Source of the DNA: a virus
Length of the DNA: 20,455 nucleotides
Reading direction: 5' to 3' (one strand)
Virus record (IMG/VR): IMGVR_UViG_3300045988_013649
Coordinates: 1 to 20,455 of that record
Notes under the pieces: generated by a model
Databases searched by the model: none
The model's input: the letters and a program-made list of their open reading frames with translations, nothing else
Told to the model about the DNA's origin: nothing
Shown here: positions 1-20,455 of the stretch, in pieces
How the letters are laid out: every line of letters starts with the position of its first letter
Numbering within the stretch: the first letter of the stretch is position 1
Position numbers and translations under genes: made by a program

Positions 1-28
1 TGGGCTCGGAGATGTGTATAAGAGACAG
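1..28. other. Illumina Nextera transposase adapter (library artefact)
   Basis: Bases 1-28, TGGGCTCGGAGATGTGTATAAGAGACAG, equal the 3' part of the Nextera Read-2 adapter. The 19-nt Tn5 mosaic end AGATGTGTATAAGAGACAG lies at 10-28. Confidence 0.97.
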
Positions 29-1914
29 TCACTGACTTTGCTCCATATATTTGTTGCTACAGTTAAGATAACAGACCAAATATTCGCTACGATTGTAGCT
101 ATGATTTCTACAATCGGCATGATAAATCCTAGTATAGTTGCAATAGCCGTTCCAACATATGTGATTACTGTACTTATAAATGAAATAATCCCACTTACAA
201 CACTTCCTACAACTGTTAGAATAGATGTTATTACAGGAATCATTTCAGTTATCACTGAGATAATCTTTTGAATAATTGCTAGAATCGGTGGTCCTACTAC
301 TGTAAGAATCTTTTGTGCTTGATTCACAATGTTTTGAATAACTTCAATAATCTTGCTTAATATATCTTTTGCGATAGGTTCAAGTGCAACTTTCATCTGC
401 TCAATTGCTTTTTTTACTTCATCAAATGCAGGCTTTAAGACTTTGGAAACTTGGTTAACGATATTTGTGATTCCACTTGTATCAATGCTACCAAATACGC
501 TTGAAATAACTTCACCGACTTTGGCAAACCCTTTTTGAATATCTTGTATAGCTAATGTAATTAATACAATGATACCGGAAAGAATAGGGGTAATAAGTTC
601 GCCGATTGGAGTAAATGAATCAAGAAATGCACGTCCTAAACCACTTAAAGCGTTCTTTAAGCCACCGTTTGCGATAGCCTTAACCTTATCCATTGTTCCG
701 GCTACATTGTTATATTCATCACCTACAGATGATAAAGATGTAATAAACTTAAGGTTGAAATCTTCTCCCATTGTGCCGAATGCAATACTTGCTTTGTTTA
801 ATGCTTCTTGTTGATTTGTTGTTTCCTTAATATCTTGGATGATTGCGTCTTGCACATCTTTTTGTGTTGCGCCACCTTCTTTATATGCTTGGAAAACTTC
901 TTTTGTCTTATCATTGAAACTATCTAATGATTTTTCGATAGTTCCGTCTGACATTCTTGTAGTAATTTCATTTACTGCGTCATGCGCTTTATCAAGGTTA
1001 TAAGAACCACTTTTTACACCATTTGTAATAGTTTGTAAATATTCTTCTGCCGAATATCCTGCTTGCTTGAATTTACCTGCGTATTCTGCAATATTATCAC
1101 CTAATTCTCCGGAATAATCCAAACCATTCTGAGCACCTTTTGCTATAAGGTCAAAAGCTTTTTCGGAACTGATTCCAAATTGTTCCATTAATTGTTTCGC
1201 ACCTCTTAAGGTCTCATTCTCATCCATTCCATAAGCGTCTCTTAATGTAATCAAATCCTCGGTCACATTCTTTAGGTCAACATCACTTATGCCTTGCATT
1301 TGTTGCTTGACTCTGCCCATCATATCGGCAACATCTGAAATATCTTCACCGAAATTATTAGACCAAACATCACGAGCAATGTTTTTAAATTTATTCATTT
1401 CATTACTTGAAGCACCTGTTTGAGCTTGGAATTTAGCCATAGCGTCATCTAATTCCATGGCTTGATTAACACCTGTCTTAATTGCTAATGCCATGCCACC
1501 GATAGCTCCTGCCACGGCAGTAACACCAACAACTCCACCAACGCCTAATCCTGTTAATGTTTCTGTGATTGCAGTAGCTTCCGGACTAATATTCTGAATC
1601 TTTCCTAATAGTCCGTCAAATCCACCTTGAATTGATTCTAATGCACTATTACCTACTTGTTTAAATACATCAAATTTAGAACCTGTTTCTGTTGTTTCTG
1701 TCTGTGTATTCTTTTGTTCGCTATTTAGCTTTCTTAATTCATCCGTAATCTTTGGTGGTGCTTTTGAACCCTCAGAACCTAACTTATCTATCGCATTTGA
1801 AGTATCTTTAATAGCATTTGTAGCTTTATTTGATACATCACTAACCGATTTAATACCATTTTCAAGACCACTTGTATCTATCTTTGTATCAAACTTTAAT
1901 GTTCCATCTGCTAT
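29..1914 (-). CDS. tail tape measure protein, C-terminally truncated by the contig edge
   Basis: I translated the minus frame from 1914 to base 1 and found no stop in 638 codons. It is absent from the ORF track because no stop is reached. The product reads ADGTLKFDTKIDTSGLENG...MELDDAMAKFQAQTGASSNEMNKF...GYSAEEYLQTITNGVKSGSYNLDKAHDAVNEITTRM. It has a Gly/Ala/Val TM-like segment and a long hydrophobic helical tail, and it lies downstream of the chaperone pair. The first 133 codons contain no ATG/GTG/TTG. ATA at 1912-1914 follows an in-frame TGA (1915-1917), with SD AAGGAGGTG at 1924-1932. Confidence 0.85.
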
Positions 1915-2875: not shown

Positions 2876-3382
2876 TTATACTTCTGATGTACCTTCTGTA
2901 AATGTTACTGTTCCATCTGCTACCTTTGCAGTACCGACACGAATATCACTTGCAAAGTTAATGTTGAAGTTGATTTTTGAATCGACACCACTTAATGTGT
3001 CAAAGATTAATTTAGTGTCAACTTCCCACGCTTTATATCCTTTTGTTTTGTCTCCGTCAAACATGAATACAAGTAAAGCTTTTGTGTTTACTTCTTCATT
3101 GTCCGGAACGGATTTCATCATTTTTTCATAGATGTATTCGAAATCATCTTCACCTTTAATCATTGTTAAATCTTGTGCAATCTGAGGTGAATAACTCTTC
3201 AATGATTCTGTAGGATTCTTATCTGCGATAAAGTCATATGTCTCCGTTTCACTGTTAAATGAAATATCCAAAGTTGTAGACTTCTTGATACGCTTGTACC
3301 CTGTTCCCATTTCCAAGAACAAACCAATCATATACTTTTTGACTGTTTGTCCTACGCTTACTTCAGTTCCTTGAGTTGTTAT
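2876..3382 (-). CDS. major tail protein (start placed at ATA 3380-3382)
   Basis: The track ORF is 2876..3331, but its ATG has no SD. The frame is open back to 3385, just after an in-frame TAA at 3386-3388. SD AAAGGAG (3391-3397) lies 8 nt before the ATA. The product is a beta-rich ~168-aa protein in the canonical tail-tube position. Confidence 0.75.
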   Translation of the reverse strand: MTTQGTEVSVGQTVKKYMIGLFLEMGTGYKRIKKSTTLDISFNSETETYDFIADKNPTESLKSYSPQIAQDLTMIKGEDDFEYIYEKMMKSVPDNEEVNTKALLVFMFDGDKTKGYKAWEVDTKLIFDTLSGVDSKINFNINFASDIRVGTAKVADGTVTFTEGTSEV

Positions 3383-3801
3383 TAATTAAGCTCCTTTCTG
3401 TATTTAATTTGAATAGTTAATGCATATACTGCTTGACTATCCTCATTTGTGTATAGATATAAACCACTTGAAACGGAAACATCATCACAATATTTGTTTC
3501 CGTCTAGTTGTGGTAATTCTCCATTTAAATTCTTTTCGTCAATCCATTCTCCTAATTCTTCTAAGAAGGAATTGTTGTCTTGTCTCTCGGATTCAATCTG
3601 TGTATTCCTACGTGCTAGAAACGTATAGTATTCAGTACGCATTTGAGAGCCGTCAATGTATGTATCTACAATTGCGTTAGGTTCTTTGTATAACGCATAA
3701 GAGATAGCTTGTTGCGCTAAAACATCCGTTTCAATACGTTCATCTATCTGTATATTTCCATATCCATATAGCCATTGAATCAACGCTTTTGATACTGTCA
3801 T
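3382..3801 (-). CDS. neck / tail-completion protein (position-based)
   Basis: This is a 139-aa ORF with an ATG in an ATGA overlap with the upstream gene. SD GGAGGT lies 5 nt upstream. It is the last of four small genes between the capsid and tail tube genes. Confidence 0.6.
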   Translation of the reverse strand: MTVSKALIQWLYGYGNIQIDERIETDVLAQQAISYALYKEPNAIVDTYIDGSQMRTEYYTFLARRNTQIESERQDNNSFLEELGEWIDEKNLNGELPQLDGNKYCDDVSVSSGLYLYTNEDSQAVYALTIQIKYRKELN

Positions 3802-4160
3802 TCACTACCTCCTATCATTTGTTGTGCTTTCTTTAAGATTGTTTCTGCTCCGCCATTTCGCATAGCTTTTTCAAACCAATGGTCTGTTTTACCACCAACG
3901 AAATGAGCGCCCTCTTTGTTGTAATACCAACGTCTTGCATATGGAGCACTTGGTCCACCTTGCTTTACTAATCCGCTACCGATTTGAGTATTTCTTGTAG
4001 CCGAGTTGATTAATGCTCCTGTATCTCTAGGCGTATAAGGGGACATAAGCCTAATGACTTCAGAATCAATCATTTGTTGAACTCGTCCACGTTCTTCAAG
4101 TCCTCTTGATTGCTTAATTTGGGGAATTGATTCAACATCAAGTTTGACTTTCATTCCTAT
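3798..4160 (-). CDS. HK97 gp10-like head-tail joining protein
   Basis: The sequence MKVKLDVESIPQIKQ...SPYTPRDTGALINS...YARRWYYN fits the gp10-family pattern (P..TG.L..S). The start is either ATG at 4152-4154, 16 nt from GGGAGG, or ATA at 4158-4160, 10 nt from the SD and overlapping the upstream TAG as ATAG. The track start at 4232 is nested in the upstream gene. Confidence 0.65.
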   Translation of the reverse strand: MGMKVKLDVESIPQIKQSRGLEERGRVQQMIDSEVIRLMSPYTPRDTGALINSATRNTQIGSGLVKQGGPSAPYARRWYYNKEGAHFVGGKTDHWFEKAMRNGGAETILKKAQQMIGGSE

Positions 4161-5016: not shown

Positions 5017-5886
5017 TTACTTAGCACTAGCAGATAAGTAAATACCTGCTACCTTATTTGCGTATACATCAACGATTCCATACTTACGATATTTCAATAC
5101 ATCTGAATCTGATTCAATGTTATTGCTTGCAGGAATTACATTTGAAACGGTGTGTTTATCCCATTTCATTACGGCAGGTTTATGAACAATCAAGAAGTTG
5201 ATTACGTGTCCATCTTCTGCCTTTTCGTATCCGCCATCTAACTCTGTATCTTTTCCACTCAACAATTTGATTTTTGTATAGAAACGACTAGCAGGTACAG
5301 GAACAACTTTTGCGAATCCTTGTAAAGCTTCACGAGATTTGTATGTATCTAATGCCTTAACGCCATTTAATAATGTAGGTGTAGCATACAAGATACGTTG
5401 TTCGCTAGGAACTTCATCTTCATCCATTTTAGTAGTTGCCGTTAATAATGCGCTCAAGAACTCTTCTGAAGTTGTATAATCTTCGGCAACTGTTGTGATT
5501 CCTGTTGTTCCGGCAATTTTAGCAAATGTATAAGCGTCTGCTTCCGGTGCTACCTTTGTACGCATTAATTCTGCTCCTGCCATACCGAACGCAATATTCA
5601 TTGATTCGGCATTGTCTTGTGTATCGACTGAGATTTTAGTTCCTCTATCATAGTCGAATGTAGCAGTTTTCCATTCTAACTTAACTGAGTTACCTGTATA
5701 ACCACTATTTCTATCATAGTTTCCTAAACCTTTGACTGAAATTTGTGGATAGATGATTTCTTTTGCGTTCGCTCCTGCTCGTACCATTGTAGCGTCTGCA
5801 TTTAAATCACCTGTTACTGAAGCTAACTTATACACCTCATCTAGATTTGAGACATACGTTTTAGCTAGTGCAATTTGATTTGGTAT
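5017..5886 (-). CDS. major capsid protein (start placed at ATA 5884-5886)
   Basis: The track ORF starts at GTG 5835, which has no SD. The frame is open to 5889, after an in-frame TAA at 5890-5892. SD AAGGAGG (5896-5902) lies 9 nt before the ATA. The extended N-terminus is IPNQIALAKTYVSNLDEVYKLASVTGDL. The body (GLGNYDRNSGYTGNSVKLEWKTATFDYDRGTKISVDTQDNAES) looks like a Firmicutes-phage capsid family, and the gene follows the scaffold gene. Confidence 0.85.
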   Translation of the reverse strand: MPNQIALAKTYVSNLDEVYKLASVTGDLNADATMVRAGANAKEIIYPQISVKGLGNYDRNSGYTGNSVKLEWKTATFDYDRGTKISVDTQDNAESMNIAFGMAGAELMRTKVAPEADAYTFAKIAGTTGITTVAEDYTTSEEFLSALLTATTKMDEDEVPSEQRILYATPTLLNGVKALDTYKSREALQGFAKVVPVPASRFYTKIKLLSGKDTELDGGYEKAEDGHVINFLIVHKPAVMKWDKHTVSNVIPASNNIESDSDVLKYRKYGIVDVYANKVAGIYLSASAK

Positions 5887-8158: not shown

Positions 8159-9343
8159 CTATGCAATGCAAACAAGCGGACTGCAAGCAAACGCACTACT
8201 CGCATGGCTATTCGTGATAGTACCATTAGAGTACACAAGCCACGTATCATAAGCATTGTAGCGAACGGATGAACGCAAACGAACGCTCTGAGCCGATGTT
8301 TTATTTGCGACTGAGTATCCAATCATATTTGGATACTCAGTCAACCATTCACAAGGGATTGTACGTCCACTTCTTCTTTTCCAATAGGCGTGTACATCAC
8401 CTTCTCCACTCGTCTGTGGTTTGATGAACATCTGAGATAACGAAGGTAACGTAACGTAATCATATGTAATATCCTCTGCACCTTCATCATTTACAGTGTT
8501 GGCATAAGTAACTACCTTTACTTTTTTTAAGCAATTTAGCATTTTCTCGGGCATACCACAAAGGAATCCGTCTTTACCTGCTAATTGGTCAGGGCAAATA
8601 TCCCATTGGTCTTGTGGAGTCCACCATTGTCCTTTTGGTTTGCTTGAATTTAAGTACTGTCTTAAAACAGATGTTTTCCATCTGTTCCATCCATATGCCA
8701 TTTCTTGCATAGAATTTAAATTCCCACTTCTACTATCGTATTGTATTGTTCCTAGATTTGTTCCACCACTGCCAACAGTAACATTAACTGTTTCATTTAG
8801 CGTGATTCCATCTTTACCGTATGAATAAACCTTCCAACTTGATGGTGTGGTATCTGGTGCTCCGTAACATCCAGCTAATCTACCACCTTTTTCTACTGGT
8901 TTAGTCAATGTGAATTGGTAATTGATTCCTGGTTTAACATTGCTTCCCCATTCTTTCACAAAATCAAAATGATATGTTCCTACTGCTAATCCATTAGGGC
9001 ATGCTATAAAAGCCCTTTGGTGTGAGAATTGAATACCAAAAGGCAAAGTATAGTGCGATTGTAGCCACATTCCCGGAACTACTTCTCCGTCCTCTAAAGT
9101 TACATCTTCAAAGTGGTTTACTTGCCACGGAATATCATATTCCTTTAGCTCTGCGGTATCTGTCCATTTCTCGATTAATTGCGTACCAATTGCAAATGCT
9201 TTTTCACCCGCACCATCTGCAACGATTGTTTGAACACTATTCCAATCCATATTGGAATGTGCGATATTTGTTTGAGCAATTACAGATAAAGCTTTTGCAA
9301 TTTCTTGTCCTGTATATTCTGTTAGAATTCTTTTCTTACTCAT
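8159..9343 (-). CDS. putative receptor-binding / fibre distal protein
   Basis: This is a 394-aa ORF with an ATG start and SD GGAGGT. The C-terminal pattern SVRLRSSVRYNAYDTWLVYSNGTITNSHASSAFACSPLVCI resembles DUF6273-type ends (W.LRS...V...G....RP). The function is inferred from its neighbours. Confidence 0.5.
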   Translation of the reverse strand: MSKKRILTEYTGQEIAKALSVIAQTNIAHSNMDWNSVQTIVADGAGEKAFAIGTQLIEKWTDTAELKEYDIPWQVNHFEDVTLEDGEVVPGMWLQSHYTLPFGIQFSHQRAFIACPNGLAVGTYHFDFVKEWGSNVKPGINYQFTLTKPVEKGGRLAGCYGAPDTTPSSWKVYSYGKDGITLNETVNVTVGSGGTNLGTIQYDSRSGNLNSMQEMAYGWNRWKTSVLRQYLNSSKPKGQWWTPQDQWDICPDQLAGKDGFLCGMPEKMLNCLKKVKVVTYANTVNDEGAEDITYDYVTLPSLSQMFIKPQTSGEGDVHAYWKRRSGRTIPCEWLTEYPNMIGYSVANKTSAQSVRLRSSVRYNAYDTWLVYSNGTITNSHASSAFACSPLVCIA

Positions 9344-9545
9344 CGTCTACCTCCTGAACAATATATCCTTCTTCGTCTACAGATAAACCTAGTGCATCAA
9401 ATCTCTGCTTTAATGCACTGATTCCTAAAGCAGTATCTAATTGTTGTACTGTACATTTCTTTGTGCTTTCTTCATCTTCAATAATTAGTAAATTTTCTTT
9501 TTTTATGCCGTTTGAGCTAGGCAAATCTTCTATCTTTACTCCTAT
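9336..9545 (-). CDS. small fibre-anchor-like protein with N-terminal KIxDLP...TKK motif (start placed at ATA 9543-9545)
   Basis: The frame opens after TAG at 9549-9551. SD GGAGGG (9552-9557) lies 7 nt before the ATA. The product begins GVKIEDLPSSNGIKKENLLIIEDEESTKKCTVQQL, which resembles the common tail-fibre N-terminal motif. The track TTG start at 9524 cuts through that motif and is 14 nt from any SD. Confidence 0.6.
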   Translation of the reverse strand: MGVKIEDLPSSNGIKKENLLIIEDEESTKKCTVQQLDTALGISALKQRFDALGLSVDEEGYIVQEVDDE

Positions 9546-10940: not shown

Positions 10941-11702
10941 CTACACCTCTAACTGAAAATAGAAATATCCTGCAGGACAAGTTTCTAAAGTTGGTACATC
11001 TGTACCTATCTTGTATTTAATTTCCTGTCTTGCTTTTAATTCCATCTGTTCTTTTTCTAAGTCTTGAATCATTAAAAGAAGCTTTCCACCTTCTCCTTCT
11101 CCAAGAACATCTTTAACAATTGCGAACCAATCATCCCATGCTTTTTGATTCTCTTGTATAGCTTTTGCGTATTCTTTTTTTGCTTCTGCTATTGCTTCTG
11201 CAAATTGGTTAAAGAATTGTGTTGTATCTATCTGCTTAATTGCGTTTGTAACAACTCCACATCTACTTGAATCTAATCTAGTATCAGTAATATCTGAGCC
11301 TTTAATTTCTGTTGAGTTACCTTGTACCTTTACAGTCGCTAAAACTAAATCATAGATAGAATCTGTTCTTGTGATTGATTCACTAGCTACTACACTAATA
11401 TTTCTATAAGAATCGTTGTCGTTTAATCTCAATACAATATTGTATGTCTTTGTGGAACTAGAATTTGTTAATGTGATGGTTTCGTCGTCTTTTTGCCAAT
11501 AGAACGCTCCATTAATGTTTGCTCGTCCTGCTTTAATTGTTAATGTTAAGCCTTGAGCTTTCTCAACTCTTAAATGGTCTGTACTAGAATCATCTACGAA
11601 CACGCCGTTTGTAAAGTAGCTTGAGAACAATCTTCTGAAAGCGTCATATAATACTAATCTATCACCATTTCTAGAGATGAATGGAAAATATGTTGTTGCT
11701 AT
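10941..11702 (-). CDS. tail-fibre-like protein (start placed at ATA 11700-11702)
   Basis: The track starts at TTG 11630. The frame is open to 11708, after an in-frame TGA at 11709-11711. The extended N-terminus is ATTYFPFISRNGDRLVLYDAFRRLFSSYFTNGVF, which matches the YFPF.S..GDR.Y.A..F...F..NGVF motif of prophage fibre proteins as I recall it. The ATA overlaps the portal TAG as ATAG. SD GGAGAGGAGG is at 11713-11722. Confidence 0.7.
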   Translation of the reverse strand: MATTYFPFISRNGDRLVLYDAFRRLFSSYFTNGVFVDDSSTDHLRVEKAQGLTLTIKAGRANINGAFYWQKDDETITLTNSSSTKTYNIVLRLNDNDSYRNISVVASESITRTDSIYDLVLATVKVQGNSTEIKGSDITDTRLDSSRCGVVTNAIKQIDTTQFFNQFAEAIAEAKKEYAKAIQENQKAWDDWFAIVKDVLGEGEGGKLLLMIQDLEKEQMELKARQEIKYKIGTDVPTLETCPAGYFYFQLEV

Positions 11703-13102
11703 TCTTCTTCATCCTCCTCTCCATCATCTTGAATTTCTTCATTTAATAACTCTGTTGCTTCTTCTTCAGTAAAGCCATATTGTTTCATGAAATACATAAT
11801 CTTTAATCTTGGAATATCAAATGTTAATGCGTCATTTCTTAACGCTTGTGCAGTGCTTTGCTTATCTTCGATATAAGTATCATCATAATCAATAGCAATG
11901 TCTAATGAATTAATATTAAGCTTTCTTCCTTGCGTTAATTCATAGAAGTATGCTATTGCTTGAATAATACCTTGAATATATGCAGTAGATTCTTTGCGTT
12001 GTGAGTTTACTTCCTTCATAGCGTCTTGATTCTCACCGATATATTCTGTTGCCGTTACGATTCTTCCACTCTCAAACGTGTATTTTTTTGTACCGAATCC
12101 AAACATCATAGATAAGATACTTAATGCAGTTTCTAACGACTGCACAACCTCTTGTGTTCTAACTGTTGGATTATATTCTTGCCATAAAGCTTTTTCTTCC
12201 GGCAACTTGTCTCTACCCAATTGCACGAAGATATTCTTTAATTGTGGATTCTGTTTCACTTTTCCGTTCTTGTCTTTCTGCATTAATGCTTCATTTACAA
12301 GAACGATTTTATCTGATTTCAATAAATCTCGATTCCACATTGTCATTGTCAAGTCAATTGTTTTCAAAGGAGCAATTGCACTCCAAATCTTAGGCAAGCC
12401 GTACCCTTGCATTTGTAAGTTGTTTACCTTTGCATTTCTCATAATTGCAAAAGGTTTAACCACATCTAATTGAACAATCTGAGCACGCTCTTTTATTTCC
12501 TCGCCTGTATCTTTGAAGTAATGTGTTTCTGCAATATATCTTTCGTCTTGTCCTTTTAAGAACATGACCATCACATATACTTTTTTTAACTTCTCATAAT
12601 TTACTCCAACGAAAGCTACCTCAACGATTTCATCATTGATAACAGTTAATGGGAGGATATTCATTGAATCACAATAGTTGATTCTGATTTCTCCTCCACT
12701 AAATGAACCATCTTCATAAATCTCGGCATTTGATACCGTCACATAAGCTCCTACTGTTCCGTTTGCAGACATTTGCTCAACTTGTTTCCTATACATTACA
12801 TCAAACCTATTCTTTGTTAGAATGTCTGAAATAATGTCATTTGTTGTACTGTCTTCAGTTGCGTTTATATCTAGGATTTCAATTAGGTTTGCGTCATCTT
12901 CGCATAAACGCTTTGCAAAGTCTGTCTTGTCTAGCGTGTATTCCTCATTGTTCAAGGTGTATGCCGTATGAAATTCTGTTTCGGTATTTGTGTACCACTT
13001 GTTGCACAATTCAATAATCTCAATTGCGTTTGTATCTACATAATACCCTCTATCGTTTAGGTAATTTTGAAACCACGGTCTACGTGTGTTAGATGTTTCT
13101 AT
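11699..13102 (-). CDS. portal protein, SPP1 gp6-like (start placed at ATA 13100-13102)
   Basis: The track starts at TTG 13009. The frame is open to 13105, directly after the terL TAA at 13106-13108. A perfect SD AAGGAGG (13109-13115) lies 6 nt before the ATA. The extended N-terminus is ETSNTRRPWFQNYLNDRGYYVDTNAIEIIELCNKWYTNTETEFH, which fits portal N-termini (..gy.v......I..W..WY.....FH). The protein is ~467 aa, has an acidic C-terminus, and follows terL. Confidence 0.88.
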   Translation of the reverse strand: METSNTRRPWFQNYLNDRGYYVDTNAIEIIELCNKWYTNTETEFHTAYTLNNEEYTLDKTDFAKRLCEDDANLIEILDINATEDSTTNDIISDILTKNRFDVMYRKQVEQMSANGTVGAYVTVSNAEIYEDGSFSGGEIRINYCDSMNILPLTVINDEIVEVAFVGVNYEKLKKVYVMVMFLKGQDERYIAETHYFKDTGEEIKERAQIVQLDVVKPFAIMRNAKVNNLQMQGYGLPKIWSAIAPLKTIDLTMTMWNRDLLKSDKIVLVNEALMQKDKNGKVKQNPQLKNIFVQLGRDKLPEEKALWQEYNPTVRTQEVVQSLETALSILSMMFGFGTKKYTFESGRIVTATEYIGENQDAMKEVNSQRKESTAYIQGIIQAIAYFYELTQGRKLNINSLDIAIDYDDTYIEDKQSTAQALRNDALTFDIPRLKIMYFMKQYGFTEEEATELLNEEIQDDGEEDEEE

Positions 13103-13105
13103 TTC

Positions 13106-14440
13106 TTACCTCCTTAAATCTATATATCCACTATGGGTTATAAATGTATAGCAGAACGAATCCCAATCATCATTGATATTGTTTACGTTCTCATCTATTG
13201 GAATGTCTTCCTTTTTATCCCATACCAATTCGCTTAATGCGTTTATTAAGTTCTTACAATGTTCTTCTATCTTTAGCCTACCTGTAACAAGTAAGCTATC
13301 AACCGTTATAGGACGGTCTGCAAGCTCATTCTTCTTAACTGGTGCAATTATACTTCCGTCTAATCCTTCGGCGTAAAAATAAGCTCTAAGCGTGTTTATA
13401 AGTGTATTTGAAGCACTATCCGGAAATATCCACTCTACATATCCGTAACATTCAACACAACGCTTATAGAACCTTACAAACGCTTTGCAAAACTTTGTTG
13501 CGTCTATTGCATTTGACTTTGCCATGTCTCCTTCATCAAGTGCCCACATATAATCCCAATCATTTGTAAACCCTGTTAAGTGCCATGAATACTTTGAGCC
13601 ATTGTCTCCAAAGTCAACACCTATGATTAAATGACTAAACCTTTTTCCTTTTTCATTCATCTTTTCTTTTAGACTCTGATATTTAAATAAATAAGGTTTG
13701 CAGTCATTTGCAAAATAAGGGAATACAAGTCCTTCGGCTTCTTCCCTTTGTCCTTTTATGTCTCTTTTGTAATAAACGCTATTCTTATCGTATGATTTCA
13801 AGACTGTTCTTATCTGCTCATCACTTAAAGAATAATTGTCAACTAAGGTGGTATGCCCATAGTTGTAACCATATGTAGAATCTTTATTCTGTTGCTCCTC
13901 ATGATATTTCAAGAAATCTGTGTAATACCAATGATTCTTGCCTTTTGGGTTTAAATCATGAAATATCTTTCTATCGCTTGACGCTATCGTTCTATCCATC
14001 ACTTCTTGTAGAAACTCAATGCAACAAAGGTTTGCTTCTGTTACATATGCCATTCCATAAGAATAACCATGTATTGCATTCTCTGAGCCTTTCTTAGCAC
14101 CACCGGCAAAGAATACAACCTTTTCTCCAACCTTTGTGTTGATGTAATAACAGTCTTTACCTTCATACTTTCCCACTTTGAATCTATTCGCAAAGTAGTT
14201 CTGCAATCCATATCCATTACAATCTCCAATATTAACACGTGCAGATGATGTATCTGTTCCTGCTATTAAATGGAACTTATCCGGATGTGTTTCTAAAGCA
14301 ATACAGAAAGCGTATGTATTTAATACATTCTTTCCGCCTCTTTTCCCACCTTCTAATACATTAAGCCATGAATCGAATGTTCTTTTAAGATAAGTTAATT
14401 GTTTTTGATTGAAAGGCGCAGGCTTATTCAAAATCTTCAA
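13106..14440 (-). CDS. terL: terminase large subunit (PBSX / Terminase_3-like)
   Basis: This is a 444-aa ORF starting at TTG 14438-14440, which is the first possible start after an in-frame TAG. It has a Walker-A-like LEGGKRGGKN and an N-terminal PFNQKQ motif. It overlaps the terS end. Confidence 0.9.
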   Translation of the reverse strand: MKILNKPAPFNQKQLTYLKRTFDSWLNVLEGGKRGGKNVLNTYAFCIALETHPDKFHLIAGTDTSSARVNIGDCNGYGLQNYFANRFKVGKYEGKDCYYINTKVGEKVVFFAGGAKKGSENAIHGYSYGMAYVTEANLCCIEFLQEVMDRTIASSDRKIFHDLNPKGKNHWYYTDFLKYHEEQQNKDSTYGYNYGHTTLVDNYSLSDEQIRTVLKSYDKNSVYYKRDIKGQREEAEGLVFPYFANDCKPYLFKYQSLKEKMNEKGKRFSHLIIGVDFGDNGSKYSWHLTGFTNDWDYMWALDEGDMAKSNAIDATKFCKAFVRFYKRCVECYGYVEWIFPDSASNTLINTLRAYFYAEGLDGSIIAPVKKNELADRPITVDSLLVTGRLKIEEHCKNLINALSELVWDKKEDIPIDENVNNINDDWDSFCYTFITHSGYIDLRR

Positions 14441-14813
14441 TTCTTCTTTCTTTTGCTACATCTGTAATCATAGCTTTATTAATTGCATTTACTTCTGAAG
14501 CGTCAAAATGTGTTTCTACCTTATCTGATTGACCTAGGAATTGTTTGCCTAAGAAAATAGCCATTGCAGGACTCTTTGAAGCTAGTTTAAATTGCGCTCT
14601 TCGTAACGAAATTCTTCCTTGTGCGCCGAACCTTTTTAAACATTCGGAGAAATCAGTTCCATATGTACGTTTGCACCATTTTGATAGTGTCTTATCTGTC
14701 GTGTTAAAAAAATAGCATACTTCTGCTTGCGTGCATTGAATAGCTAACAATTTTTCAAATTCTTCTTTGTCGAAATCCTTGTTAGGTCTTCCAACTTTTC
14801 CATTCGCTATTAT
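14424..14813 (-). CDS. terS: terminase small subunit with HTH (start placed at ATA 14811-14813)
   Basis: The body LAIQCTQAEVCYFFNTTDKTLSKWCKRTYG...ISLRRAQFKLASKSPAMAIFLGKQFLGQSD is a typical terS. The conserved N-terminal GRPNKDFDKEEFEKL lies upstream of the track TTG at 14750. The frame is open to 14825, after TAG at 14826-14828. The only start-like codons there are ATA ATA (14808-14813), 5 and 8 nt after SD AAAGGGG (14819-14825). Confidence 0.85.
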   Translation of the reverse strand: MIANGKVGRPNKDFDKEEFEKLLAIQCTQAEVCYFFNTTDKTLSKWCKRTYGTDFSECLKRFGAQGRISLRRAQFKLASKSPAMAIFLGKQFLGQSDKVETHFDASEVNAINKAMITDVAKERRIEDFE

Positions 14814-15513: not shown

Positions 15514-15826
15514 CTTTCTTTAAATTCTTGTTTATTTTTCTTGGAATTTCTTCTCTTGCATAACCTACAATATTAGATGTCTTTTCTGCACTGAATCCCT
15601 TTATATATCTATACTCAATCATGGCTCGAGTCGTATCATCAAGTTGGCTTAATTTGTCTTTTACATAGTTCATTCTTCTTGCATAATCTGCATGAGCTAA
15701 GAATAGCTCGGCTTTTAAAGGATAAATTGCTTCATCCCTTTGTAACTCTGCTATCTTTTGCTCATAGTATGTATAAGATTGGCATTCACACAAGAAGTGT
15801 CGTTTTACATCTTCATAGGTGCTCAT
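15500..15826 (-). CDS. late-gene transcriptional activator, sigma-70 region-4-like HTH (RinA/ArpU/DUF1492-like)
   Basis: This is a 108-aa ORF with an ATG in an ATGA overlap. The C-terminal LDDTTRAMIEYRYIKGFSAEKTSNIVGYAREEIPRKINKNLKKV fits the region-4 HTH pattern. It sits in the canonical position just upstream of the terminase genes. Confidence 0.6.
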   Translation of the reverse strand: MSTYEDVKRHFLCECQSYTYYEQKIAELQRDEAIYPLKAELFLAHADYARRMNYVKDKLSQLDDTTRAMIEYRYIKGFSAEKTSNIVGYAREEIPRKINKNLKKVLTM

Positions 15827-16017
15827 GAACTGTATACCTTATACAATCTATCTTTTAATTCGCCAACTTCACTTCTTAATTTCTTGATTTCTTTAGCTTG
15901 AGTATGAATTGTTTCGTTTCTTTCTTTTATAGTCTGATTAAGCTTAATATTTGTCCTTCCTAATTTATTATTCTTTGAAATTAACTCTTTAATCCTTTCT
16001 TCATAATTCATTTCTAT
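15823..16017 (-). CDS. small coiled-coil hypothetical protein
   Basis: The track start GTG at 16024-16026 lies inside the SD (GGAGGTG) itself. ATA at 16015-16017 is 8 nt from the SD and ATG at 16009-16011 is 14 nt from it. All three are in frame, so the start is ambiguous. Confidence 0.6.
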   Translation of the reverse strand: MEMNYEERIKELISKNNKLGRTNIKLNQTIKERNETIHTQAKEIKKLRSEVGELKDRLYKVYSS

Positions 16018-16033: not shown

Positions 16034-16621
16034 TTAATTTAATGTCTTTATAAAATCACAATATCGTTTTATATAGCTCCATTTGTTTGAATATTTGTAA
16101 TATTTGCTAGAATGCTCTCCTACACTTATTTGACTTATCCCTATAACATCTTTACTAGGAATTACTAATACATCTAAAACTTTTTCATCATCACTAAGTA
16201 TGTACAAGATATATATGTCGCAAGTTGGATATATTTTTTCTAAATTGAATGTGTAAAAGCTCCCATTCCTACCTCTGTATAAAGTACTCGCTTTCACATC
16301 AACTTTTACACATTCATTCACTAAAATATCATACGGATGTTTTGTAGACATTTTAATAGCTTCATATCCTTTATTCTCTATATAATCCATGAATTTCAAT
16401 TCATATTTTCTGCCGAAATTTGTTCTACTTGGTTTTGATTCTAAATGTAATTCTTTCGCTAAAGGAAACCATAAATTTCTTTTTGAAATTGCATTGCCTA
16501 ATTTTGAATCTCCATAGTATTCTTCAACTTCTCTTCTTGTAGGCATTCTGTTTAATCCTGTATCAATAATCATTTCTTTGATTTGTGATTTTATCTTTTC
16601 TTCTGTCCAGTGTTCTCTTAT
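16034..16621 (-). CDS. PD-(D/E)XK-like nuclease (possible free-standing homing endonuclease or resolvase)
   Basis: GRKYELKFMDYIENKGYEAIKMSTKHPYDILVNECVKVDVKAS gives an E...D...(D)xK arrangement like Hjc/restriction-fold nucleases. The frame is open upstream of ATG 16573, which has a poor SD, back to 16624. ATA at 16619-16621 lies 6 nt after GGAGGT (16627-16632). The extension reads REHWTEEKIKSQIKE. Confidence 0.55.
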   Translation of the reverse strand: MREHWTEEKIKSQIKEMIIDTGLNRMPTRREVEEYYGDSKLGNAISKRNLWFPLAKELHLESKPSRTNFGRKYELKFMDYIENKGYEAIKMSTKHPYDILVNECVKVDVKASTLYRGRNGSFYTFNLEKIYPTCDIYILYILSDDEKVLDVLVIPSKDVIGISQISVGEHSSKYYKYSNKWSYIKRYCDFIKTLN

Positions 16622-20410: not shown

Positions 20411-20455
20411 TGTCTCTTATACACATCTCCGAGCCCACGAGACTCCTGAGCATCT
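20410..20455. other. Illumina Nextera adapter read-through with i7 index (library artefact)
   Basis: CTGTCTCTTATACACATCT (20410-20428) is followed by CCGAGCCCACGAGAC, then TCCTGAGC, then ATCT. This is the mosaic end, the Read-2 adapter, an 8-nt index I recall as N704, and the start of the P7 sequence. Confidence 0.97.

Follow-up and report, generated by a model that had tools for sequence, protein, structure and literature searches.

A conserved ATA codon as the probable start of the portal gene, and of other late genes, in an uncultured gut phage

Where does translation of a phage portal protein begin when its reading frame is open for 31 codons upstream of the first codon that gene callers accept? 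The question is raised by IMG/VR virus record IMGVR_UViG_3300045988_013649, a 20,455-nt stretch of DNA from an uncultured gut phage that was analyzed over its whole length (hereafter, the window) and in which all genes noted are encoded on the minus strand. At the junction of the large terminase gene (terL) and the portal gene, the minus strand reads GAT TTA AGG AGG TAA GAA ATA GAA ACA TCT AAC ACA CGT AGA CCG TGG. An earlier note on this DNA had placed the portal start at the ATA at 13102-13100 instead of the TTG at 13009, and the homologue N termini, profile alignments, and conservation of the ATA codon examined here bear this out. Together with a structural model, these comparisons leave little doubt that the portal starts at this ATA. 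In the reading that we favor, with a probability of roughly 85%, the portal would be translated from this codon as a protein of 467 residues by ordinary formylmethionyl-tRNA (fMet-tRNA) helped by an extended Shine-Dalgarno (SD) sequence, in a manner that is not specific to the portal gene.

The elements of the start region follow each other without a gap. The extended SD sequence AAGGAGG (13109..13115, minus strand, as for all features below) consists of the last two sense codons of terL, AGG AGG, with the preceding A-A. It is followed by the terL stop codon TAA (13106..13108), which shares the portal frame in the window and lies in other frames in relatives, and by the codon GAA (13103..13105), which completes a 6-nt spacer, TAAGAA. 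The putative initiation codon ATA (13100..13102) comes next, conserved at the position equivalent to Met1 of homologues. Behind it lie 30 codons without a canonical start (13010..13099) that encode the N terminus ETSNTRRPWFQNYLNDRGYYVDTNAIEIIE, a segment with predicted helices and homology to the N termini of relatives. The TTG used by open reading frame (ORF) and gene callers (13007..13009) is an internal Leu codon, residue 32 from the ATA, with no SD sequence upstream. The earlier note had described the AAGGAGG, the 6-nt spacer, and the ATA directly after the terL stop exactly; it was also right that the frame stays open for 31 codons before the TTG with no ATG, GTG, or TTG among them, and the N-terminal peptide that it quoted agrees with the translation. 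The only one-base neighbors of ATG in this interval are the ATA itself and three ATT codons (13027, 13021, and 13018).

Redelimited from the ATA, the portal gene spans 11699..13102 (467 codons plus stop; phrog_533, TIGR01542, portal fold) and lies directly downstream of terL (13106..14440; TTG start; Pfam Terminase_3 / Terminase_6N, phrog_2). The mechanical ORF list instead begins the portal at TTG 13009 and gives it 436 amino acids. A portal started at the ATA is predicted to include the peptides ETSNTR, RPWFQNYLNDR, and GYYVDTNAIEIIELCNK, the last of which spans the TTG site; a portal started at the TTG would open with MCNKWYTNTETEFHTAYTLNNEEYTLDK.

Five copies of AAGGAGG are present in the window, each of them on the coding strand just 5' of a gene start (2.1 occurrences expected, both strands). 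The wider pattern GGAGG-N4-10-ATA has seven copies, again exclusively on the coding strand, and every one marks the 5' end of a stop-to-stop ORF; 3.1 occurrences are expected, and seven were reached in 5 of 100 shuffles. Motif counts alone are weak evidence, and it is the placement of the motifs, together with comparative data, that makes the pattern nonrandom.

Homologue N termini were judged on the best 120 homologues. In 86 of the 120, the initial Met lies exactly 29 residues ahead of a conserved W-Y motif, and the TTG is only 4 residues before W-Y. Measured from the position equivalent to the TTG, homologues reach about 29-35 residues farther upstream. Met1 of the ATG-starting homologues coincides with the position of the ATA in relatives (IEDCIRNFLNKQGY versus MENCVTNFLQKKGY). 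Portal homologues that begin at the residue equivalent to the TTG, which the earlier note had named as evidence against an ATA start, did not appear: the same 86 begin at or near the ATA position, and proteins that start at the TTG are gene-caller products of ATA-type DNA only (cluster P0001).

The codon is conserved at the nucleotide level as well. The near-identical set comprises 40 contigs, namely 38 IMG/VR contigs, one ENA contig, and the window itself, and AAGGAGG-TAAGAA-ATA-GAA is kept in all 40, the sole change between SD and ATA being a G to A in the spacer. Farther out, ATA stands at the portal start in all relatives of at least 52% identity whose DNA was examined. For example, locus L003 (83%) reads AAGGAGGTAAATAG|ATA GAA, with an in-frame TAG immediately before the ATA, and L042 (61%) reads AAGGAGGTAAGTGA|ATA GAA GAT TGC, with an in-frame TGA in the same place; the L042 product I-E-D-C-I-R-N-F-L-N-K-Q-G-Y matches, position by position, the M-E-N-C-V-T-N-F-L-Q-K-K-G-Y of homologues that start with ATG. 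An SD sequence followed 5 to 9 nt later by ATA is also present in L192 (61%), L194 (59%), L043 and L150-152 (58%), L044 and L153-155 (55%), L196 (54%), L045 (53%), and L197 (52%), where the ATA is at, or at most one codon from, the Met1-equivalent position. In every one of these ATA-type relatives the caller passed over the ATA and settled on an ATG far upstream or on a TTG, GTG, or ATG downstream.

The segment that follows the ATA varies among close relatives as a protein-coding sequence would. Across 30 distinct haplotypes, 15 of the 22 variable sites after the ATA are third codon positions, and 11 of the 17 variable codons are purely synonymous. By this pattern of substitution, the stretch after the ATA is coding and under purifying selection.

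The identification of the protein as a portal comes only from PHROG, TIGRFAM, and fold searches. The match to phrog_533 (E 4.2e-55) covers query residues 23-466 and profile positions 27-485 of 495, beginning 10 residues upstream of the TTG. Against NCBIfam TIGR01542 (A118-type portals; 73.6 bits, E 1.3e-20), query residues 56-460 align with profile positions 55-469, such that residue 56, numbered from ATA = 1, pairs with position 55; the score falls short of the equivalog cutoff of 277.2 bits, which marks the protein as related to that family and not as an equivalog. Pfam PF05133 (SPP1_portal) did not match the window portal even at E <= 1, although some portal homologues carry precomputed PF05133 matches, and a profile search of PDB sequences with the portal also returned no match. 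An AlphaFold model built with 21 homologues (predicted local distance difference test [pLDDT], 75.7; predicted template modeling score [pTM], 0.70) resembled in Foldseek the portals of 80alpha (8v8b, E 1e-11) and SPP1 (gp6, 7z4w, E 9e-11, template modeling score [TM] 0.55), and it also matched the solved portals of SaPI1, Douge, and T7. Helices are predicted at residues 10-18 and 25-38 with pLDDT of about 90, and the TTG, residue 33 in model numbering, falls inside the second. The protein is thus a portal of the A118/phrog_533 kind. The earlier note had called it SPP1-type, a label that is valid for the fold alone: the portal identity stands, and likeness to SPP1 is not found by sequence. The alignment to portal profiles that it had suggested gave a similarly divided result, with PHROG and TIGRFAM placing the N terminus upstream of the TTG and Pfam SPP1_portal giving no match. 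With A118-type portals (TIGR01542, phrog_533) and the SPP1 gp6 / 80alpha fold it shares the terS-terL-portal arrangement, a PHROG match, and the fold that is predicted for it; the differences are that known members of those groups start with ATG and that the window portal is below the TIGR01542 cutoff.

The phage is distant from anything cultured. A megablast search with terL and portal together found no match among 50,697 phage records, and by tblastn the nearest cultured phages reach at most 52% identity (capsid) and 42% (TerL), too distant for the transfer of a curated annotation or of N-terminal sequencing results. In GTDB genomes, portal relatives reach at most 49% identity and are mostly Lachnospiraceae prophages. 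The only named genome with a member of the clade is that of Amedibacillus sp. YH-ame6, family Erysipelotrichaceae, where it is a prophage (GCA_053848845.1, contig JBSPEZ010000008.1; 65% in the TerL search).

The portal is not alone in its start codon. Scanning every minus-strand ORF for SD-backed starts located further ATA genes. The small terminase gene terS (14424..14813) would start at ATA-ATA (14813 or 14810) after AAAGGGGA; the called TTG at 14750 lies past the GRPNK motif, and in L042, L044, L045, and L196 the protein begins (ATA)AKGKYKEW. Directly after the portal, the ATA of a head-protein gene (10941..11702) overlaps the portal stop (ATAG); its phrog_1220 match pairs query 3-229 with profile 8-257, PHROG alignments begin at residues 2-8, the called TTG is residue 25, and the ATA is kept in 38 of 38 relatives. 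For the major capsid gene (5017..5886), the ATA lies 9 nt after AAGGAGG, phrog_422 aligns from query 3-288 to profile 3-294 of 297, and (ATA)PNQIALAKTY pairs with MPNNI.LAKNY of 44 ATG-starting homologues (49-66% identity); this ATA is kept in all 35 close relatives. The tape-measure gene (1..1914), which runs off the window, has an ATA at 1914-1912 with an in-frame TGA directly upstream and an AAGGAGG that ends 11 nt before it, and its product begins (ATA)ADGTLKFDTKI, compared with MADGTLLFETKL and MSDGTLKFDTKL in L278 and L279. Two genes of unknown function complete the set. One, in the structural module (2876..3382; phrog_3099), has an ATA that overlaps the upstream stop (TAATA), a PHROG alignment that starts 5' of the first ATG, and the N terminus (ATA)TTQGTEVSVGQ, compared with MATSGTEVAVGQ in L278. 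The other (16034..16621; phrog_28936) has an ATA 6 nt after GGAGG, and its PHROG match covers query residues 4-194, with the first ATG at residue 17.

These comparisons indicate that at least seven of about 20 late genes almost certainly start at ATA: terS, the portal, the head protein, the capsid, the tape measure, and the two genes of unknown function. Because the portal is one of at least seven such genes, the explanation cannot be portal specific. Three further ORFs are candidates: 15823..16017 (GGAGGTGGCTTTA|ATA GAA ATG), found by the scan for SD-backed starts alone; 9336..9545, a 69-codon ORF (GGAGGGTAGCGA|ATA) present in only two related loci; and 3798..4160, an ambiguous case in which the ATA overlaps the upstream stop (ATAG) and the alternative is ATG 4232. 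The ATA/stop overlaps at 11699-11702 and 4157-4160 (ATAG) and at 3380-3384 (TAATA) are counterparts of ATGA and TAATG. In two close relatives among L198-L233, the ATA of the 3382 gene has been lost by a 3-nt deletion (AGGAGCTTAA|TTA ACA ACT), after which no obvious start codon remains at that position.

The ATA starts are confined to the packaging and structural block: they occur in none of the 11 upstream (early) genes versus 6 to 8 of the 19 late genes (Fisher p = 0.06 to 0.014). ATA is the only noncanonical start in the window, to the exclusion of ATT and ATC. The SD/anti-SD duplex is stronger on average at ATA genes than at ATG genes (-13.6 versus -10.1 kcal/mol; one-sided Mann-Whitney p = 0.009), and the SD of each of the seven is above average. 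The habit extends to relatives: capsid and terS likewise show ATA in L196, the Amedibacillus prophage, and in contigs L042-L044.

Several explanations for this pattern can be set aside. Reassignment of AUA to Met, as in a mitochondrial-type code, is rejected because internal ATA is still Ile: internal portal ATA codons align with I, V, or L in homologues (66%, 18%, and 8%), and ATA is used 16 times per 1,000 codons in window genes, where it supplies about one Ile codon in four. AT mutation pressure does not explain the pattern, since L279, at 28% GC, uses only ATG and L194, at 42% GC, has an ATA portal. Termination-reinitiation coupling as a requirement fails on the stop-to-ATA gap, which is 3 nt in the window, 116 nt in L043, and 173 nt in L044, and on the ATA starts of terS and the 16621 gene, which have no gene directly upstream. 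Finally, the capsid and tape measure use ATA too, so that a weak start to limit the supply of the 12-copy portal cannot be the only reason.

In the favored reading, the AAGGAGG 6 nt upstream would position the 30S subunit. AUA would then be read, with a third-base mismatch, by the usual initiator fMet-tRNA (anticodon CAU), a mechanism documented for Staphylococcus aureus, and the long SD would compensate for the weak codon. The host would have to tolerate AUA well enough for a capsid gene, and late-protein synthesis may thereby become dependent on initiation stringency, that is, on initiation factor 3 (IF3), guanosine tetraphosphate (ppGpp), and nutrient state. The S. aureus genes infC, ccpN, and citZ have natural AUA starts, each with an extended SD, as established by initiation-site ribosome profiling and reporters, and the AUA of ccpN is shared with B. 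subtilis (Nat Commun 2026, PMC13009471). Relative to AUG, their efficiency is about 10% when the medium is poor and rises to as much as 30% when it is rich; in the same species, cvfC1 starts at AUU (PMC13009471). In extracts of E. coli, AUA performs like AUG if the initiation region of the mRNA is optimized, and ppGpp and nutrient limitation selectively depress non-AUG starts (PMC5499595). Of known systems the S. aureus AUA genes come closest, and the phage resembles them in its low-GC Bacillota setting, in the AUA at the initiator-Met position, in the long, strong SD with normal spacing, and in a codon that is conserved among relatives and misannotated by standard callers. It differs in scale: in S. 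aureus, four isolated cellular regulatory genes are involved and AUA throttles them to 10-30%, whereas in the phage the codon would serve about a third of the late genes clade-wide, the most abundant virion protein included.

Two further systems invite comparison. In E. coli, infC and pcnB start at AUU and are sensitive to IF3, in a demonstrated autoregulatory loop. The likeness lies in a start one base from AUG, in use tied to initiation-factor stringency, and in a route to regulation; the E. coli cases differ in that the codon is AUU and single host genes are concerned, and no such loop is evident for the phage structural genes. Gut crAss-like and Lak phages reassign TAG or TGA in late genes via suppressor tRNAs, and a role in timing has been proposed. 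There, too, nonstandard reading of the code is concentrated in the late and structural genes of gut phages and breaks gene calling, but stop-codon recoding acts on elongation and termination, whereas here the initiation codon alone is unusual and the elongation code is standard.

Some observations weigh against initiation at ATA in this manner. The syntenic loci L278 and L279 use ATG for every one of the window's ATA genes, and a neighbor-joining tree nests canonical-start portals among ATA portals; ATA is therefore not obligatory for the portal gene family. L197 has an ATG 4 codons past the ATA, and several relatives have a TTG 8 to 13 codons past it; in these relatives a downstream start cannot be formally excluded. 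AUA in E. coli in vivo supports only 1-2% of AUG expression (bioRxiv 063800). A major capsid gene would seem to need more than such a level provides, which implies that the host is unusually permissive or that other help is at hand. Three readings can be entertained: a host that initiates unusually well on AUA, a phage that accepts or exploits a step tracking host physiology, and a dedicated factor.

A dedicated factor is the most durable of the alternatives, though an unlikely one. Here, the ATA start would be read by a special host or phage mechanism, such as an AUA-reading initiator-like tRNA or a relaxed IF3/30S checkpoint, perhaps switched on late in infection. The very high output that a capsid requires speaks for it, set against AUA efficiencies of 1-2% (E. 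coli) or 10-30% (S. aureus) of AUG, as do the restriction to a single codon in the late block only, the use of another single codon, AGG, at the same site in Lachnospiraceae prophages (see below), and the independence of ATA use from GC content. Conversely, no tRNA gene was found within the 20-kb window, internal ATA is ordinary Ile, and the stronger SD of the ATA genes is exactly what ordinary near-cognate initiation predicts.

Much less probable is a true start at TTG 13009, with a 436-amino-acid product and the upstream 93 nt as an untranslated leader that is open by chance. The TTG is the first in-frame canonical start, and clusters P0001 (1,406 members) and P0003 are annotated from it or shorter. 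Yet an SD sequence is missing there, a start within helix 2 would cut a confidently predicted element, and the supposed leader shows third-position variation, synonymous changes, and protein homology to the N termini of ATG-started portals. Nor is the Leu at this site a conserved start, relatives being called at other downstream codons.

Two other possibilities are harder still to credit. According to the first, TerL and portal would form a fusion, made when ribosomes read through the in-frame TAA or shift frame, with no separate portal start. The terL stop and the portal do share a frame in the window with one stop codon between them, and the AGG-AGG before the stop resembles known shift-prone sites. 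Across relatives, however, the frame relation is 0, 1, or 2; the second in-frame stops directly before the ATA of L003 and L042 and the long spacers of L043 and L044 also stand against a fusion, TAA is an ordinary stop throughout the window, and we reject this reading. The second, with no better prospects, moves initiation to one of the in-frame ATT codons (13027, 13021, or 13018). AUU is a known bacterial noncanonical start (infC and pcnB in E. coli; cvfC1 in S. aureus), but the three ATT codons have no SD upstream and lie inside predicted helix 2, the residues 5' of them are conserved as protein, and relatives have ATC or other codons at these sites. Least credible of all is a recent inactivating ATG-to-ATA mutation or assembly error that cripples the portal: a single transition would suffice, and in E. 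coli rpoS such a change lowers expression (PMC12864459), but this reading is refuted by conservation, as the ATA occurs in 40 independent assemblies (ENA, Logan, and IMG/VR) and about ten divergent lineages; the ORF is under purifying selection, and six other genes are alike.

A different codon was observed at the same site in more distant relatives. In 23 prophage portals (42-49% identity), the Met1-equivalent position is an invariant AGG, never AGA or CGN. These loci (L051, L059-L061, L063, L064, L069-L072, L074, L076-L079, L082, L084, L089, L092, L093, L097, L099, and L105; start region at about 2480-2520 in most) come mostly from Lachnospiraceae metagenome-assembled genomes, together with the isolate Roseburia lenta NSJ-9 (L064). 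A GGAG-type SD lies 5 to 9 nt upstream, with no ATG, GTG, or TTG nearby, and in L061 and L070 an in-frame TAA directly precedes the AGG (taGGAGGcaTAA|AGG GAA AAC TGT; RENCV versus MENCV). In the neighbor-joining tree, the AGG loci form 3 to 4 groups among ATG relatives. An SD followed by AGG was also seen at terS-like and other ORFs (L060:640, L076:781, L082:659, and L089:3915) with no close canonical start, the L082 ORF having none in its first 70 codons; AGG starts in these prophages may not be limited to the portal. No report of natural bacterial AGG starts was found in the literature. A single viral contig, L190 (IMGVR_UViG_3300029762_000216), has ACG at the Met1-equivalent position (gaGGAGaagaac|ACG GAA GTA TGT), which could be an error or a further near-ATG start.

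Other features of the window and its relatives were noted in passing. Between 8159 and 11702, the window carries genes that are extra relative to L042-L045, L196, L278, and L279, in which Phage_min_cap2 mostly follows the portal directly; they encode the 253-amino-acid head protein (phrog_1220), a 462-amino-acid protein with internal repeats, the 69-codon ORF, and a 394-amino-acid protein. Upstream of terS, L003 has a gene for QueT, a queuosine-precursor transporter (PF06177; L003:607-1080), which may start at an SD-backed ATA at 619 instead of the called ATG at 649. Remnants of Nextera/Tn5 adapters lie at both ends of the window, at 1-33 and 20420-20453 (CTGTCTCTTATACACATCTCCGAGCCCA at one end and CTCGTGGGCTCGGAGATGTGTATAAGAGACAG at the other), which makes the window a whole, untrimmed contig; adapter sequence accounts for part of MLRSLVGSEMCIRDS, the N terminus of the "ORF" at 20453.

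Truncated portal entries are common in public protein clusters. Cluster P0001, with 1,406 members, takes the internal TTG as its start, and one nr entry is even shorter. Many truncated portals stand in P0001, P0003, P0014, P0016, P0021, P0025-P0034, P0038, and P0042, where a TTG, GTG, or ATG as far as about 100 residues into the protein was taken for the start. This N-terminal truncation evidently stems from the noncanonical start. In thousands of metagenomic entries, callers that accept only ATG, GTG, and TTG would truncate or misstart the portal, the capsid, the terminase, and the tape measure, to the detriment of protein families, predicted structures, and phage taxonomy.

Isolated genes that start at AUA or AUU behind a strong SD are already known. 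Literature searches found no phage or bacterial operon with about a third of its late genes, capsid included, started at ATA, and no ATA/AUA starts in Erysipelotrichaceae or their phages. We tentatively suggest, as a possibility that we hold at somewhat less than even odds, that a clade of gut Bacillota phages uses AUA routinely, in about a third of its late genes, and that sister Lachnospiraceae prophages use AGG, apparently for terS too. If so, either the start-codon repertoire is widened in specific host lineages or late synthesis is deliberately tied to host initiation stringency, which would be an initiation-level counterpart of stop-codon recoding in late genes. Initiation by an extended SD with AUA would then reach from a few regulatory genes of S. 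aureus to a whole viral expression program, and some gut Bacillota would initiate on AUA far better than E. coli, or these phages would couple virion output to the growth state of the host.

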